DNA from: a virus
DNA length: 64,000 nucleotides
Virus record (IMG/VR): IMGVR_UViG_3300045988_171858
Reading direction: 5' to 3' (one strand)
The position numbers and the translations under genes were made by a program. Positions 4,494 through 29,895 of the stretch are shown here, one piece after another. The notes under the pieces are model-generated. The model was not told the DNA's origin. It did not search any database and saw only the letters and a program-made list of their open reading frames with translations. How positions within the stretch are numbered: the stretch's first letter is position 1; every line of letters begins with the position of its first letter.

Positions 4494-4541
4494 GTTTACC
4501 TCATGTCATAAAAGGACCGACAATAATGTCGGCCCTTAAAA

Positions 4542-4952
4542 TTAATCTTTGTAGTTTATTTTGACGCAGAATTTTTCGGCTTTTGCCTTAATAGGATTCA
4601 AGCGTCGAATTATAGCACTTAACACTTTTGGTGTTTCTTTTCTCCGCTTAGATGCCTTGAAAATCAGGTCAGTAATATACATAATTACTGCCGCCAAAAT
4701 TACAGAGGCAATCACAATAAGTGACATAAACGAAAAGTACGCCAAGAACCAATTAGCCCCGGCGAGATCTTTCAGGGGGATGTCATACAGGCCCAACAAA
4801 ATTGAGGCAGTGAATCCAACAGTGCCAAGTAGGAACACGAAGAACATAATAAACAGTGGAATCAGTTGACGTGTGAACCCACAAATGTCTTCCGCAGGAT
4901 CGCAATAGAGATCCATCAATTTATACAGCCAGCTTTTACGACTTAATTCCAT
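4542..4952 (-). CDS. membrane protein (136 aa, about 3 TM segments)
   Basis: ORF track. AAAGG RBS. Long hydrophobic segments. Confidence 0.7.
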   Translation of the reverse strand: MELSRKSWLYKLMDLYCDPAEDICGFTRQLIPLFIMFFVFLLGTVGFTASILLGLYDIPLKDLAGANWFLAYFSFMSLIVIASVILAAVIMYITDLIFKASKRRKETPKVLSAIIRRLNPIKAKAEKFCVKINYKD

Positions 4953-4971
4953 TTTTATTTACCTTTCTAAA

Positions 4972-5286
4972 CTATTCTTCAAATCCGAAATAATCAATAA
5001 GCCCATCCATCTTAGAAATGATATTTCCCGCGCCTATTGGATTTTGGCTATGAACGGTGTACTTAAACCCTTTCGGAAACTTCAAACCATTATCAATCAG
5101 CTCATTCTCAAGATGATTTATGAAATTGATTGCAGTATCCTGACATCCCAAATCATGGTCAAATGCAATTTCTTGAGGCATTCCATATAACTCCAAGGCT
5201 TTAATCGCCTGATAGCTATTACGAGCCACAAACCAATCAGGAGTAACAGGAAATCTTTCGTCATCTATAAAAAGACGATAAGTCAT
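4972..5286 (-). CDS. receiver-like (cyclic-phosphate-processing REC, cREC-type) domain protein
   Basis: Start moved to ATG 5286, which has a GGAGG RBS. Contains RLFIDDERFP...RNSYQAIKAL...IAFDHDLG...TVHSQNPIGAGNI, matching the phage cREC pattern (hhhDD.R.P / sFDHDLG / vHS.NP.G). Confidence 0.6.
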   Translation of the reverse strand: MTYRLFIDDERFPVTPDWFVARNSYQAIKALELYGMPQEIAFDHDLGCQDTAINFINHLENELIDNGLKFPKGFKYTVHSQNPIGAGNIISKMDGLIDYFGFEE

Positions 5287-5299
5287 ACGACCTCCATAA

Positions 5300-6268
5300 T
5301 TAATCATTATCCGCAAAAATATCAGGAGTCAGGCATCTAAAGTAAAGCTCAATTTTCTTTTGAATTCTTACAATATTTTCTGCAGTATTATCATATTCAT
5401 CGCCGCTATAAAACTTAAGATAGCGTGCTCTGTTCATATGACGATCATTCTGACTGATTGCCGTCTTGTCCGACCTGAGTATAATTGCCTGTCCAGGAGC
5501 GTTCATATCTTTGGGGATTACACCATTAACAGAGTATTGAAATCCGTCTTTGACTGTTGAGATATTGTAATAATAGAACTCTTCCAACGCATAGGAAGGA
5601 AGCATTTTAAGCTCAATATTCAATAAGCCCGCGCCGACCCTAGGAAAGCTAGATGAATTAATTTTGAAAAGCTTCATACTGAACCTACTGTTCTCTTCTC
5701 TTTTAATTTTACCGGCAAGAGATAAGTACAAATGCGAAATCAGATAATGGAGCAATTCTACTGGATGATCAACATCCCAATTGAAATTCTTGAAATCATG
5801 GAATATTTTATAATCTACAAGCTCATCCATTGCAATTTCAACTGCACTTTCAATTGTCATTGGATCCTTATTGGTTATATTTGAATTCCAGATTCCTATT
5901 GCATCTGGCAAATACATATTCAAATATCCCCTTGGTATACCCTTGCCCCATATACATTCTGCAATTTCGCCAATATTAGAATTAAAGGCAAGCTCTTTTT
6001 TATAGCCTCTTTCTGTTAAGAATTTCTTTATACGTCCAAAGATTTCCGTCCTTTGGCATTGTACTTTAGATAATTCATATCTAGATTTAAGGCTAGTAAG
6101 ATGCATTGGCTCAAAGTATCCGGGCTTTATACCGGCCTTTTCTAGAAAATCCAAATATCCTTCCATTGTTTTAAACTTGATTTTTAATTCAGGCCCCTGC
6201 CACTCTTGCAGGTCCATTACATTGGATTCGAATTTCTCGAATTGTAAATTGTTATTCAGATTTTTCAT
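5300..6268 (-). CDS. hypothetical protein (322 aa)
   Basis: ORF track. ATG 6268 has a GGAG RBS; the track start is a GTG 6 nt upstream. Confidence 0.75.
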   Translation of the reverse strand: MKNLNNNLQFEKFESNVMDLQEWQGPELKIKFKTMEGYLDFLEKAGIKPGYFEPMHLTSLKSRYELSKVQCQRTEIFGRIKKFLTERGYKKELAFNSNIGEIAECIWGKGIPRGYLNMYLPDAIGIWNSNITNKDPMTIESAVEIAMDELVDYKIFHDFKNFNWDVDHPVELLHYLISHLYLSLAGKIKREENSRFSMKLFKINSSSFPRVGAGLLNIELKMLPSYALEEFYYYNISTVKDGFQYSVNGVIPKDMNAPGQAIILRSDKTAISQNDRHMNRARYLKFYSGDEYDNTAENIVRIQKKIELYFRCLTPDIFADND

Positions 6269-6380
6269 GCACACTCCAATAATAGAATATAGTCTTTCAA
6301 TATATTGTTTATTAATCTAATCAGCATAACTAATATCAAAAGCCTTTGACCTTCAGAAACCTTTGATATTAATAAGCTGC

Positions 6381-6412
6381 AAAAACAAAAGCCCCAGCGT
6401 CGAGCTGGGGCT
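6381..6412 (-). terminator. intrinsic terminator downstream of the adhesin gene (bidirectional shape)
   Basis: Perfect 9-bp stem AGCCCCAGC/GCTGGGGCT with loop GTCGA. On the minus strand it is followed by TTTTGTTTTT. Confidence 0.8.
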
Positions 6413-6422
6413 TTCACTTTTA

Positions 6423-29270: not shown

Positions 29271-29272
29271 GA

Positions 29273-29449
29273 CTAGTCATCCAGTCCTTTGACTTCAATG
29301 TCAACAACATCCATATCTTCCATGCATGCAACGGTTTCTGCATACTCGTATACATAGTCGACATCCATGGGTTTAACATAAGACACGAGACGGTCCTTAT
29401 GGCTACCGTCTTCGAAAGTGTATCGAATCAAGAAATCTGTGTATTTCAT
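29273..29449 (-). CDS. hypothetical acidic protein (58 aa)
   Basis: Start moved to MKYTDFLI (GGAGG RBS). Confidence 0.6.
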   Translation of the reverse strand: MKYTDFLIRYTFEDGSHKDRLVSYVKPMDVDYVYEYAETVACMEDMDVVDIEVKGLDD

Positions 29450-29478
29450 TTTGAAACCTCCATTGAAAGAATTATTAT

Positions 29479-29511
29479 CAGTAAAAGACCGACACATTCC
29501 TGCACCGGTCC
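29479..29511 (-). terminator. CSE copy
   Basis: Minus strand reads GACCGGTGC-AGGAAT-GTGTCGGTC-TTTTACTG. Confidence 0.8.
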
Positions 29512-29520
29512 AAAATTCTG

Positions 29521-29817
29521 TCAGAACGGGTGATCTTCACTCGCGTTCTCTTTGTGGAACTTCTCTGCATATTTAGAAGCCCACTTATTAGAATTCATGC
29601 AACCTTTACCTGGGGTTGCAAACTCATGAACGGCGGAGCAGTAAACTGCCATACCATCCTGAGTCGGAATCCTACGGAACCAGCCGGGGATGTCCTTTTC
29701 AGACATCTCAACGCCAACTGGCATAATGAAACTTACGCCACGATACGCAGCGCTGTTAACATCACCGGCACAAAGTTGTGCAAACGGTGAATCTGGGGTA
29801 ATGACGAATTGTCGCAT
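29521..29817 (-). CDS. hypothetical protein (98 aa) ending ...SEDHPF
   Basis: ORF track. GGAGGG RBS. Confidence 0.7.
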   Translation of the reverse strand: MRQFVITPDSPFAQLCAGDVNSAAYRGVSFIMPVGVEMSEKDIPGWFRRIPTQDGMAVYCSAVHEFATPGKGCMNSNKWASKYAEKFHKENASEDHPF

Positions 29818-29843
29818 ACCCTACCCTCCGAGAAAGAAAAGAA

Positions 29844-29870
29844 AACGGTAGGACGAATCCTACCACCGTT
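29844..29870 (-). terminator. intrinsic terminator directly upstream of 29817
   Basis: Minus strand reads AACGGTGGTAGGA-TTCG-TCCTACCGTT followed by TTCTTTTCTTTC. Confidence 0.7.
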
Positions 29871-29895
29871 GAAAGACCGACACCAGAACCGCTCC
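29866..29895 (-). repeat. CSE copy
   Basis: Minus strand reads GGAGCGGTTCTG-GTGTCGGTC-TTTCAACGG. Confidence 0.65.

Follow-up and report, generated by a model that had tools for sequence, protein, structure and literature searches.

The phage described here is uncharacterized and has a genome of about 185 kb; at the nucleotide level, no similarity to a sequenced phage could be detected. We analyzed a stretch of 64,000 nucleotides of its DNA, called the window in the following, in which one conserved strand-specific element (CSE) separates many small early genes. Searching for GTGTCGGT-NN-TTTTATGG (equivalent to GTGTCGGTNNTTTTATGG) with up to three mismatches gave 18 matches in the window, compared with 0.54 expected, and none of 100 shuffles reached this number. 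All 18 copies are intergenic and on the minus strand, which is the gene-sense strand (Table 1), and 16 of them lie within 19.5–29.9 kb, among ORFs without a Pfam match. Their positions agree within 1–2 nt with those of the at least 17 copies listed in a preliminary description of this DNA, whose degenerate core at 19508 is the copy at 19499–19516. As had been stated there, the plus-strand late block is free of full copies: none was found in 34–64 kb at up to three mismatches. TGTCGGT, which belongs to the core, occurs 19 times on the minus strand of the window and once on the plus strand, and the core precedes seven of the nine minus-strand TTTTATGR sites. The window and 11 related loci together contain 82 copies (69 unique), all on the sense strand, and further loci add more.

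Table 1. CSE copies and candidate RNA polymerase genes in the window. Where a name is given, it is the coordinate of the core base G1.
Feature	Name	Coordinates	Strand	Remarks
CSE	 	4506..4535	-	TTGTCGGT; 9-bp hairpin, A-U replacing G.U; ATG 12 nt past motif
RNAP2-like gene	 	10819..14558	-	HSDIDGDL; distant RNAP1 paralogue
CSE	 	14591..14625	-	11-bp hairpin; 32 nt upstream of RNAP2-like gene
CSE	19516	19499..19516	-	no CCGGC arm; degenerate tail AAGTTGTTGG; 23 nt before ATG 19475 (NADAR-domain gene)
CSE	 	19998..20033	-	11-bp hairpin
CSE	22213	22196..22224	-	short 8-bp hairpin; 52 nt past terminator 22279-22265; 23 nt before ATG 22172
CSE	23148	23131..23148	-	degenerate hairpin, no downstream ORF; L005 orthologue with intact ACCGAC/GTCGGT stem
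CSE	23564	23547..23564	-	no hairpin, no T-run (tail TATACTATGA); conserved in 3 relatives; non-coding AT-rich region downstream of strong canonical terminator 24078-24040
CSE	 	25600..25640	-	14-16 bp hairpin; compensatory changes in orthologous group
CSE	 	26922..26961	-	exact 18-mer; 13-bp hairpin, 3 G.U pairs
CSE	 	27303..27339	-	11-bp hairpin
CSE, 'type II'	27849	27832..27886	-	no real hairpin (-4.9 kcal/mol); ATG 8 nt past motif; in 6 relatives stands between a non-coding block that is conserved and any of four downstream cassettes
CSE	28079	28062..28107	-	long hairpin with inner stem-loop (-22 kcal/mol); tail CCCTTTTTGG; inside 354-nt ORF-poor gap
CSE	28148	28131..28172	-	weak hairpin; inside 354-nt ORF-poor gap
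CSE	28431	28414..28451	-	G1 replaced by A with compensating 5'-arm U; 12-bp hairpin
CSE	28876	28859..28894	-	exact 18-mer; second small hairpin 28856-28838 after; junction class d4, reused in relatives
CSE	 	29023..29058	-	exact 18-mer, bulged hairpin
CSE	 	29478..29511	-	hairpin GGACCGGTGCA/TGTGTCGGTCT; upstream stop 25 nt before core; ATG 28 nt past motif
CSE, extended 'type II'	29883	29866..29917	-	core GTGTCGGT, degenerate tail CTTTCAACGG, no CCGGC arm; 91 nt past stop of RNAP1-like gene; canonical hairpin + T-run 29867-29844 directly next
RNAP1-like gene	 	29975..33382	-	1135 aa; invariant DxDGD (RDDADGDR) and conserved upstream Lys/Arg

The preliminary description had placed each copy 15–100 nt before a start codon. 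The measured distance from the motif ranges from 8 to 95 nt, copies 23564 and 23148 have no credible ORF downstream, and copies 28148 and 28079 are in the 354-nt gap that is poor in ORFs. In nearly all copies, the Shine-Dalgarno (SD) sequence is separate from the motif.

Two large ORFs of the window contain a DxDGD motif, and the earlier proposal that they encode two two-barrel RNA polymerases of the phage is plausible, based on the motif, the paralogy of the two proteins, and non-significant fold matches. In HHalign, the RNAP1-like and RNAP2-like families matched each other with 96.9% probability (E-value 1.6e-10), and D839, D841, G842, and D843 are invariant among homologues down to 19% identity. 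The top Foldseek matches, obtained with a model of pLDDT 55, were nearly all RNAP beta' chains, none of them significant (best E-value 0.07), and sequence searches against Pfam, PHROG, and the PDB with the two ORFs gave no match. The RNAP2-like gene is split in the window by an intervening sequence of about 300 nt (about 11458–11756), and no CSE lies upstream of the RNAP1-like gene.

Hairpin and core of the element

In about three-quarters of the CSE copies, a hairpin of 9–16 bp begins just after the upstream stop codon, which corresponds to the geometry of an intrinsic terminator (a stable G+C-rich hairpin followed by a U-rich tract, past the stop codon); copies 27849, 23564, and 19516 depart from this geometry. 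The RRCCGGC...GTGTCGGTYY hairpin described before is present in most window copies. G.U pairs make up 24% of all stem pairs. A preference for one strand had been predicted from such pairs, and the mean fold energy was indeed -14.8 kcal/mol for the sense strand and -8.3 kcal/mol for the antisense strand, with the sense fold being more stable in 64 of the 69 unique copies. Apical stem pairs covary among relatives. In one orthologous group with a 16-pair stem, two pairs have compensatory changes on both sides and eight are changed on one side only, and a single one of 96 cells is unpaired. Basal pairs covary between clades (C-G to U-A and A-U to G-C in L028). These data support a hairpin that forms strand-specifically in the sense RNA. 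Its presence goes along with an upstream gene end: 34 copies with a simple hairpin have an ORF stop 18–38 nt upstream of the core (median 26) and 4 do not, whereas the numbers are 13 and 18 for copies without a simple hairpin, several of the 13 being bulged hairpins. At the gathering threshold, no Rfam covariance model matched the window except HOLDH, which is located elsewhere in the window, and matches in 19–30 kb were at chance level only.

The two arms of the stem are under asymmetric constraint. The 3' arm TGTCGGT is invariant, whereas the 5' arm exchanges bases that can still pair, with A or G opposite T and C or U opposite G. No core variants were seen, even though T4 stands opposite G in 34 of 57 stems, where C would strengthen the pair; as copies were gathered by a core search, this apparent invariance is inflated. 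In a check anchored at sense-strand TTTTATGR sites, which removes the bias only partly, TGTCGGT was present at 41 of 49 sites, and six of the eight exceptions represent a single recurring coincidence in the SD region (same TTTAACAG context). The tail is conserved as well: among the 69 unique copies, position 16 is a pyrimidine in 68, position 17 is G in 67, and position 18 is a purine in 68. The spacing from G1 to G17 is kept in all four sense-strand copies of L029 and in five of seven copies of L028, with differing bases in between, and CSE variants with unchanged spacing to the G are found in more distant relatives.

In copies 27849, 23564, 23148, and 19516, the 5' arm is weak or absent, as had been noticed before. 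Copies without a hairpin, and one without a T-run, retain the core, the spacing, and Y-G-R at position 17. The 27849 class lacks a real hairpin and is nevertheless conserved in six relatives. The 23564 class has neither a hairpin nor a T-run (TATACTAYGR) and keeps core, spacing, and YGR in three relatives; it lies in non-coding DNA past a strong canonical terminator. Copy 22213 is positioned between a canonical terminator and the next gene, with no space for another promoter, and its L011 orthologue has lost the hairpin and retained the core. Together with the fixed 3' arm and the drifting 5' arm, these copies support the earlier suggestion that recognition would be sequence-specific and not hairpin-dependent. 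The sequence logo has a promoter-type layout, namely a contiguous coding-strand motif ahead of genes, with a constant number of bases between it and a Y(-1)R(+1)-like start.

Cassette boundaries in related phages

Comparison of gene content among related phages with 70–85% nucleotide identity directly showed that CSEs are cassette boundaries, at which interchangeable gene cassettes are joined. L014_2498 matches window copy 29883 on its upstream side (84% identity) and copy 28876 on its downstream side (77%); L024_9373 likewise joins the upstream side of 28431 (92%) to the downstream side of 28148 (78%). L005_11745 and L024_8930 follow a common upstream gene and have different hairpins. Some crossovers lie in the core, others in the 5' arm or where the tail ends on its 3' side, and such variable positions fit short-homology recombination and not a fixed cleavage point. 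CSEs would serve as crossover points for the exchange, insertion, and deletion of cassettes because the same 18–30 bp or so are present at both cassette ends.

The chimeric junctions, the small ORFan cassettes arrayed in one orientation, with a hairpin of conserved ends and variable center behind each of them, and the strand-specific fold could also be expected of a dedicated recombination site, which would be the substrate of a site-specific, integron-like, or homing-type ORF-cassette system and have transcription-like features only secondarily. We regard this as highly improbable, as a scan of window ORFs revealed no gene for an integrase, a recombinase, or an HNH protein, the crossover position varies, and recombination by itself does not account for the T-run, the YGR, or the close fit of the element between stop codon and SD. 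Integron attC sites have a partner tyrosine recombinase, R''/R' core sites, and a fixed crossover point; CSEs, with several crossover points and no recombinase among the scanned ORFs, do not belong to this class.

The likeness to a cassette boundary of the PeSL type, considered in the preliminary description, holds in part. PeSLs (promoter-early stem-loops) of T4-like myoviruses are composite terminator/promoter cassette junctions (PMC2839356, PMC4122927). Both elements consist of an intergenic stem-loop, a conserved sequence at the promoter position, an SD, and a start codon, and both are dense in hyperplastic regions of small ORFans, where they form the exact breakpoints of indels and replacements between close relatives. 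However, in PeSLs, a host sigma-70 promoter follows a stem of poor conservation, whereas the conserved part of the CSE is one contiguous 18-mer with the 3' stem arm inside it, and its presumed reader is a phage-encoded polymerase. The CSE is not a PeSL in the strict sense, as it contains no sigma-70 consensus (-35, about 17 nt, -10) and no conserved -10 positions (information content at positions 26–31 at most 0.3 bits). Sigma-70-like promoters were not enriched in the early block either (47 versus 47.2 expected).

Possible functions of the element

We propose, with a probability of roughly one half, that the CSE is a composite gene-junction element, being a terminator-like hairpin in RNA and a phage-polymerase promoter in DNA. 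In RNA, the 5' arm (r)rCCGRCRC..., the variable loop, the 3' arm ..GTGTCGGTyy, and the U-run would form a hairpin that is part of the upstream cassette and that terminates, attenuates, or 3'-stabilizes its transcript. In DNA, the contiguous 18 bp GTGTCGGT-yy-TTTTAT-G(R) would be a compact promoter for one of the divergent candidate two-barrel RNA polymerases of the phage, with a specificity element spanning about -16 to -9, an AT-rich segment for melting from -6 to -1, and initiation at the conserved Y(-1) G(+1) R(+2). The cassette mRNAs would then start 10–50 nt ahead of their SD sequences. The terminating or stabilizing role of the hairpin, the promoter role of the core, and the identity of the polymerase are what we infer from sequence. 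In L028 and L029, the RNAP2 gene has no preceding CSE, which counts against the composite reading.

Promoters of phage polymerases offer a partial parallel. In P23-45, there are two two-barrel RNAPs of a single chain, and separate promoter motifs belong to each (PMC10770324). In phiKZ, the promoter of the nvRNAP reads T(-3)ATG(+1), and the early motifs of jumbo-phage vRNAPs are centered near -10 (PMC7598289). Like these promoters, the CSE is a short contiguous coding-strand motif tens of nucleotides before early genes that ends in TATG or Y-G-R, and its phage has two paralogous candidates for two-barrel-type polymerases. In contrast, there is no sequence similarity to the phiKZ, jumbo-phage, and P23-45 motifs beyond TATG, and an overlap with a terminator hairpin is described for none of them. 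The promoter of the N4 virion RNAP is a template-strand DNA hairpin with a stem of 5–7 bp and a loop of 3 nt. CSE stems are 9–16 bp and their loops 4–9 nt or longer, G.T pairs greatly weaken the template-strand fold, and the hairpin is dispensable in some copies, so the CSE is not such a promoter. The SAS/ESAS repeats of Cluster K mycobacteriophages, a 13-bp repeat with an SD located 3–7 bp from the start codon (PMC3203893), are likewise asymmetric repeats in one orientation, confined to the non-structural genome half, just upstream of gene starts, and an inverted repeat with a variable spacer accompanies half of their copies. ESAS arms have no RNA pairing support, however, whereas CSE stems covary, and assignment of CSEs to SAS/ESAS is precluded by their distance of 8–95 nt and by the SD outside the motif in nearly all copies.

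A possible, though doubtful, alternative is that CSEs are intrinsic terminators or attenuators only, acting on the phage polymerase(s). Conservation of stem and tail would then reflect polymerase- or factor-specific requirements of termination, common descent, and homogenization by recombination. The canonical geometry, with the stem right past the stop codon and the U-run abutting it, agrees with this, as does the TTTTTAT-type tail, which ordinary terminators of the window and of distant relatives share. The earlier argument that ordinary intrinsic terminators share no stem sequences does not stand, since phiKZ and 201phi2-1 have 61 and 59 mapped terminators, respectively, with a conserved stem and a TTAT-K tail (BCCYCCCC-HWWD-GGGRRGG-BY-TTAT-KYYGT; PMC10914365, PMC11512511). 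These phages transcribe with their own non-canonical two-barrel RNAPs, as the CSE phage may do with its candidates, and in both cases many hairpins have a common stem sequence and a short tail (two bases, TTAT, G/T). As true terminators of two-barrel RNAPs, the phiKZ sites count against the composite reading (PMC10914365). Still, the CSE does not belong to this motif: its stem is rrCCGRCRC / GTGTCGGT, and only the yy-TTAT-G tail is alike. The phiKZ sites follow other stem and loop rules and conserve both arms, one being a C-run and the other a G-run, whereas only the 3' arm is fixed in the CSE, and copies without a hairpin and behavior as cassette junctions are not described for phiKZ; conversely, the phiKZ sites are experimentally mapped 3' ends, whereas 3' ends at the CSE are predicted.

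If the CSE were only a terminator, copies without a hairpin would have to be decaying relics or recombination scars, but core, spacing, and YGR persist in them between relatives with 15–30% nucleotide difference, and one such conserved class has also lost the T-run. Moreover, the 5' arm drifts, whereas the 3' arm shows no substitutions of the kind that would leave pairing unchanged or improve it, and with 16 efficient terminators one after another within 10 kb, the downstream genes would be silent. The true unit ends carry different, canonical terminators (24078–24040, 22279–22265, about 37470–37500, and after 6423), and the most distant relative (RNAP2 homologue with 28% identity) uses ordinary terminators with variable stems. 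On the other hand, ordinary hairpins with a T-run often abut the next SD in this phage group without leaving space for a promoter; read-through is therefore frequent, and a promoter for each cassette is not logically required. Such a canonical hairpin and T-run abutting the next SD also follow within 2–3 nt after three type II copies (29883 in the window, its L005 orthologue 12588, and L016_7258) and after L021_1789, an arrangement that does not suit a promoter well unless these hairpins leave the polymerase unaffected.

RNase III sites of T7 and RegB of T4 are precedents for RNA processing in phages. A processing or protein-binding site, with the core GUGUCGGU..UUUUAUGR being read by a phage or host endoribonuclease or RNA-binding protein, would have the same positional logic as a promoter: cutting of a polycistronic early RNA would leave a protective 3' hairpin on the upstream piece and a 5' end 10–50 nt before the SD of the next one; alternatively, translation or stability would be regulated. 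The strand-specific structure in the sense RNA and the apparently common read-through of hairpins are compatible with such a site. We nevertheless consider it unlikely, because the stems, at 9–14 bp, are short by the standards of RNase III, a scan of neighboring genes revealed neither a nuclease nor an RNA-binding protein, and copies 23564 and 22213, past strong canonical terminators in non-coding DNA, would find little substrate. The contiguous 18-bp layout with its fixed distance to Y-G-R is also closer to phage promoters than to known cleavage sites.

A stricter form of the composite junction is distinctly unlikely in our view. Here, one and the same 18-nt sequence would be the 3' arm and U-tract of a terminator and also a promoter, and a novel two-barrel polymerase of a single chain would let go of the upstream transcript and, still on the template, re-initiate at G17. 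The TTAT-K tail of phiKZ terminators beside the TATG promoter of the same phage hints that such coupling might extend to two-barrel-RNAP phages. If true, this stop–start mechanism would be reminiscent of non-segmented negative-strand RNA viruses and their gene-end/gene-start junctions. Early mRNAs would be monocistronic, and each cassette would be a self-contained, exchangeable expression unit.

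Occurrence and layout of the junction element

The 18-mer GTGTCGGTNNTTTTATGG (G1 T2 G3 T4 C5 G6 G7 T8 N9 N10 T11-T14 A15 T16 G17 R18) comprises the core, TGTCGGT, and the tail, T-run plus YGR, of the conserved stem-loop element (CSE). A genome-wide motif search with strand bookkeeping had been proposed in the preliminary description, and in the 64-kb window it gave 18 matches at <=3 mismatches versus 0.54 expected from dinucleotide-preserving shuffles, of which 0/100 reached 18. Every match is on the minus strand, at positions 4506 to 29883, and this mismatch-tolerant search reproduced the earlier coordinates within 1-2 nt. 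The plus-strand block at 34-64 kb, which holds the large terminase and other late genes, contained zero copies, in agreement with the earlier statement that no full copy exists there. On its own, the heptamer TGTCGGT has 19 occurrences on the minus strand of the window and one on the plus strand. As the core precedes 7/9 minus-strand TTTTATGR sites of the window at a fixed spacing, TGTCGGT and TTTTATGR are halves of one element.

The stop codon of the upstream ORF is found 18-38 nt before G1 (median 26), and 8-95 nt after the motif, usually at 20-40 nt, comes the next start codon, preceded by a good Shine-Dalgarno (SD) sequence. The initial estimate of 15-100 nt to the start codon was thus right in placing most copies closely upstream, but the measured range is slightly different and four copies, named here by the coordinate of G1, deviate: 23564 and 23148 lie inside an AT-rich, ORF-poor region of ~1.8-1.9 kb, and 28148 and 28079 inside a 354-nt gap. 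Copies 29883 and 27849 are also exceptional, as they represent an extended type (type II) without the CCGGC arm and with a longer conserved upstream segment in common. ACTCCGTA, which is common to the two type II copies and also present in a distant relative, is not enriched in the window (35 matches versus 29.8 expected). A small plus-strand ORF in the 27849 block runs antisense through CSE 28079 (28062-28079) and ends six bases into 28131-28148.

Coordinates of features in the window
Feature	Coordinates	Strand	Remarks
RNAP1-like ORF	29975-33382	-	1135 aa, RDDADGDR
RNAP2-like ORF	14558-11757 + 11457-10819	-	HSDIDGDL
Sequence splitting the RNAP2-like gene	about 11458-11756	-	~300 nt, ORF-less; after conserved AKKAVG, before PGTNN
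NADAR domain gene	18975-19475	-	E 5e-40
cREC_REC receiver domain gene	4972-5286	-	
SleB-type cell-wall hydrolase gene	16523-16984	-	
Small CxC...CxxC ORF	14750-14929	-	counterpart in relatives matches BFD-like [2Fe-2S] family
YadA-like trimeric autotransporter adhesin	6423-7895	-	head, stalk and membrane-anchor domains; also in related locus L028
AT-rich non-coding region	22265-24040	-	between two canonical terminators; two hairpin-poor CSE copies inside
Two ~80-nt repeats in this region	23283-23362 + 23420-23499		137 nt apart, 74% identical
Type II CSE blocks	27850-28040 + 29884-29975	-	common upstream segment CTCCGTA..GA(A)TAT(A)GG..CGGTTyTG
Small ORF in 27849 block	28032-28136	+	34 codons, opened by conserved reverse-strand GGAGG+ATG
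Terminator/promoter overlap	33752-33805	-	canonical hairpin + T-run; 3' arm with -35-like TACACA, TATAAT 18 nt later
Four direct repeats of RYGTGTGAGGAY	34124-34328	-	spaced 61-66 nt, divergent intergenic region between minus and plus blocks
Exact 14-mer GACCGGCGCGGCGG	23883-23896 + 34442-34455	-	non-coding DNA, 0.08 expected
Full-length HOLDH RNA	38626-39019	+	Rfam RF02997, 397 bits, E 1.6e-107

The AT-rich region contains units of the form GGGAGC..CTAAGT..TTGATTTATATAGA, whose conservation in relatives does not require a preceding CSE. As the related locus L005 has the conserved non-coding sequence that follows copy 23564 without an upstream CSE, this conservation is poor evidence for a CSE-driven RNA. 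The region possibly acts as an origin of replication or encodes a non-coding RNA. The repeats of RYGTGTGAGGAY are iteron-like and modestly enriched (4 versus 1.1 expected, with 5/100 shuffles reaching 4). GACCGGCGCGGCGG is identical to the 5' arm of CSE 25617, and both of its non-coding occurrences lack a matching 3' arm or tail and are therefore orphan half-elements. The HOLDH RNA occupies a low-G+C, ORF-poor gap between a lysozyme-containing plus-strand cluster and the late block; a literature search for 'HOLDH' returned only unrelated papers.

Constraints on hairpin, core and tail

In most copies, a 5' arm (r)rCCGRCRC... pairs with ...GTGTCGGTyy to form a stem of 9-16 bp with a loop of 4-9 nt, directly adjoined by the T-run. 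Fixed G.U pairs, in which G faces T4 and often also T2 and T8, contribute to a G.U share of 24% of all stem pairs in the 69 unique copies that the window and its relatives contribute. The mean fold energy of these copies is -14.8 kcal/mol for the sense strand versus -8.3 for the complement, and the sense strand gives the more stable fold in 64/69, as anticipated for a strand-specific, G.U-containing structure. The hairpin is therefore a sense-strand structure, in RNA or in non-template DNA. A MAFFT alignment of all hairpin copies, which vary in stem and loop length, misaligned the 5' arms, so that no covariance model was built; the pairing statistics come from a script over the copies and from RNAalifold on one orthologous group. 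In this group, that of copy 25617, two pairs of the 16-pair stem have compensatory double changes and eight changed one-sidedly, with one unpaired cell, and in other orthologous groups C-G pairs of the apical stem have swapped to U-A.

The 5'-arm partners of the core switch while TGTCGGT is invariant: T8 is faced by A in 25 copies and G in 28, T4 by G in 34 and A in 23, T2 by A in 31 and G in 22, and G3 by C in 45 and U in 18. The 3'-arm sequence is thus constrained beyond pairing needs. As a core-independent check, we anchored the search on TTTTATGR and found [G/A/T]TGTCGGT at 41/49 sense-strand sites. Core variants were absent from these 49 sites, including T4 to C, a change that would make a G.U pair stronger, and six of the eight sites without a core are one recurring SD-region coincidence. 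The tail is similarly uniform, with a pyrimidine at position 16 in 68/69 copies, G17 in 67/69 and a purine at position 18 in 68/69.

Hairpin and core can be separated. Simple-hairpin copies have an ORF stop just upstream in 34 cases and lack it in four, versus 13 with and 18 without among copies that have no simple hairpin, several of the 13 being bulged hairpins; the simple hairpin is therefore associated with an ORF that ends just upstream. Across relatives, hairpin-less copies retain core, spacing and YGR, which bears out the early suggestion of sequence-specific recognition in copies that lack the 5' arm. Six genomes conserve the 27849 class without a hairpin. In the 22213 class, the window copy has a stem of 8 bp that is absent in locus L011, and in three genomes the 23564 class has neither hairpin nor T-run, its tail being TATACTAYGR.

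Related phages, cassette exchange and two putative polymerases

A megablast of 24 kb of the window against 50,697 deposited phage genomes (INPHARED) gave zero nucleotide matches, and RNAP1 had no tblastn match in INPHARED phages. In IMG/VR, an exact-pattern scan located clusters of the motif in viral contigs of 107-188 kb with 70-85% identity to the window, several of them from human-microbiome samples. Samples carrying these phages include the HMP and ENA samples from which contigs IMGVR_UViG_7000000615_000002 and ERZ27229916 derive. The window and 11 related loci together have 82 copies (69 unique), and 82/82 are on the gene-sense strand. A scan of viral contigs with 14 specified bases returned mostly chance singletons plus two related loci. 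Eight copies come from two loci beyond the 11. More distant relatives, with genomes of 31-32% G+C, were found via homologues of the RNAP2 ORF at 47-50% identity. Locus L028 has seven sense copies of the variant GTCGRCAC-loop-GTGTCGAy-TTTTT(A)TTGAT, in which basal pairs are altered on both sides (C-G to U-A, A-U to G-C). In locus L029 there are four sense-strand copies of TGTCGGT-wy-yTTTTTGA(k)AA, as well as three antisense TGTCGG-plus-T-run matches, which all lie in one intergenic region. In 5/7 L028 copies and in 4/4 sense-strand L029 copies, the conserved G lies at a distance of 17 from G1. Across relatives, the core is GTGTCGG or GTGTCGA, with the tails TTTTATGR, TTTTTGAT and TTTTTGAK. At 28% identity, the most distant of the relatives examined has terminators of the ordinary kind only, whose stems are unrelated and whose TTTTTTAT tails are similar.

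To follow the junctions, 80 nt up- and downstream of every copy were labelled by similarity class. Depending on the genome, one upstream class was followed by different downstream classes, and vice versa, and three-way comparisons placed the switch point inside the element, as expected from the earlier idea of a cassette boundary, for which a comparison of gene content in relatives had been suggested. Copy L014_2498 combines the upstream sequence of window copy 29883 (84% identity) with the downstream sequence of 28876 (77%), with the crossover in the core, and three genes are therefore missing. L024_9373 joins the upstream sequence of 28431 (92%) to the downstream sequence of 28148 (78%), switching directly after the 18-mer, and L005_11745 and L024_8930 share an upstream gene (82%) and have different hairpins, with the crossover at the 5' arm. 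Switching at junctions in this manner is as described for the promoter-early stem-loops (PeSLs) of T4-like phages (PMC4122927). Shared cassette ends would permit exchange by short-homology recombination. The genes between elements are almost all ORFans; the NADAR, cREC_REC, SleB-type and CxC...CxxC accessory genes are in or near the cassette region. The YadA-like adhesin is an unusual cargo and hints at a diderm host.

Sequence searches of Pfam, PHROG and PDB with both large ORFs and their profiles gave no matches. RNAP1 has about 80 close homologues on contigs of 170-188 kb and five distant ones, and D839, D841, G842 and D843 as well as several upstream Lys/Arg residues are invariant across both sets. 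By profile comparison (HHalign), the RNAP1 and RNAP2 families are related (96.9% probability, E 1.6e-10), with the match covering the DxDGD segment and two downstream motifs. A first AlphaFold run with a shallow alignment was unusable (pLDDT 37). The second model, from an alignment with distant homologues, was mediocre (pLDDT 55); its best Foldseek hit was not significant (E 0.07), and the top 50 were almost all RNAP beta' or Rpb1 chains. The phage therefore likely encodes two paralogous putative two-barrel RNAPs. A precedent is phage P23-45, which has virion and non-virion single-chain two-barrel RNAPs, each with its own promoter motif (PMC10770324). The sequence that splits the RNAP2-like gene is probably a self-splicing intron, although an Rfam search with it gave no match: the homologue P0090 (1146 aa) is uninterrupted, and ORF 11460-10819 is 90% identical to its C-terminus. 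A similar insertion follows the 931-aa ORF of L029.

Function of the junction

There is good support for the CSE as a regulatory and recombination junction that occurs clade-wide in large phages of an unstudied group. For its mode of action, we favor a composite junction, at a probability of about 0.5, with both roles deduced from sequence features. The hairpin and U-run would end or attenuate the upstream transcript or stabilize its 3' end, and the 18-mer would be a compact promoter that starts transcription at G17, its specificity element lying at about -16 to -9 and its AT-rich segment at -6 to -1, a layout parallel to T7-type promoters and to the phiKZ promoter T(-3)ATG(+1) (PMC7598289). 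Copy 22213 lies 52 nt past a canonical terminator (22279-22265) and 23 nt ahead of the next start codon, and copy 23564 is downstream of the strongest terminator of its region (24078-24040, 17-bp stem). Their conservation after terminators fits a signal for the downstream unit, as a terminator relic would have no reason to persist. It thus speaks against the CSE acting as a terminator only, which we regard as doubtful even though there is a precedent: the mapped terminators of phiKZ (61 sites) and 201phi2-1 have in common a conserved stem and a BY-TTAT-K tail (PMC10914365, PMC11512511) that is much like the yy-TTTTAT-G of the CSE, so that conserved terminators for phage two-barrel RNAPs exist. 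The CSE is like the conserved phiKZ terminators in form, not in sequence, and unlike them persists without a hairpin.

Besides this precedent, several observations count against the composite junction. At three type II copies (29883, its L005 orthologue and L016_7258) and at L021_1789, a canonical hairpin with T-run follows 2-3 nt downstream and abuts the next SD, which is unfavorable for a promoter unless the polymerase disregards such hairpins, and the RNAP2 gene has no CSE ahead of it in L028 and L029. As ordinary hairpin and T-run elements adjoin the next SD in all parts of these genomes, read-through must occur often, and there is no logical need for a promoter per gene. An RNA-processing or protein-binding site, which predicts the same positions but 5'-monophosphate ends, appears unlikely, and a coupling of termination to re-initiation at one overlapping signal slightly more so. 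A dedicated recombination site is very improbable, as crossover points vary and no recombinase was found among the scanned ORFs of the window.

Among known systems, PeSLs are closest in logic, but the CSE does not pass the sigma-70 promoter test that defines them, and part of the stem falls within its conserved sequence. A sigma-70 or ECF-type reading was rejected, as the spacing from 5' arm to core varies from 16 to >30 nt, no -10 is conserved and hairpin-less copies are without any -35; sigma-70-like promoters were not enriched in the early block. An N4-type DNA hairpin promoter was also rejected, as it has a different loop and stem size and the CSE pairs only in the non-template strand. Identity with attC sites or SAS/ESAS repeats was likewise rejected, no Rfam family matched the CSE, and a literature search for the core sequence returned only primers. 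The element at 33752-33805, which precedes a small signal-peptide-like ORF and the RNAP1-like gene, has the architecture of a classical PeSL, with a terminator and a promoter of host type overlapping.

Whatever the mechanism, in a phage lineage unrelated to T4 it is short conserved regulatory junctions that drive the shuffling of cassettes within the accessory early region, which extends the PeSL idea beyond sigma-70 promoters. For annotation, each element can be taken as a cassette boundary and probably as a transcript boundary. The clade concerned is widespread, with genomes of ~175-188 kb, human-associated and without a cultured member. If the core is a promoter, it would be the sequence recognized by a new and highly divergent two-barrel RNAP family of phages, offering a ready template for biochemistry and a compact case of one sequence that serves as terminator in RNA and as promoter in DNA.
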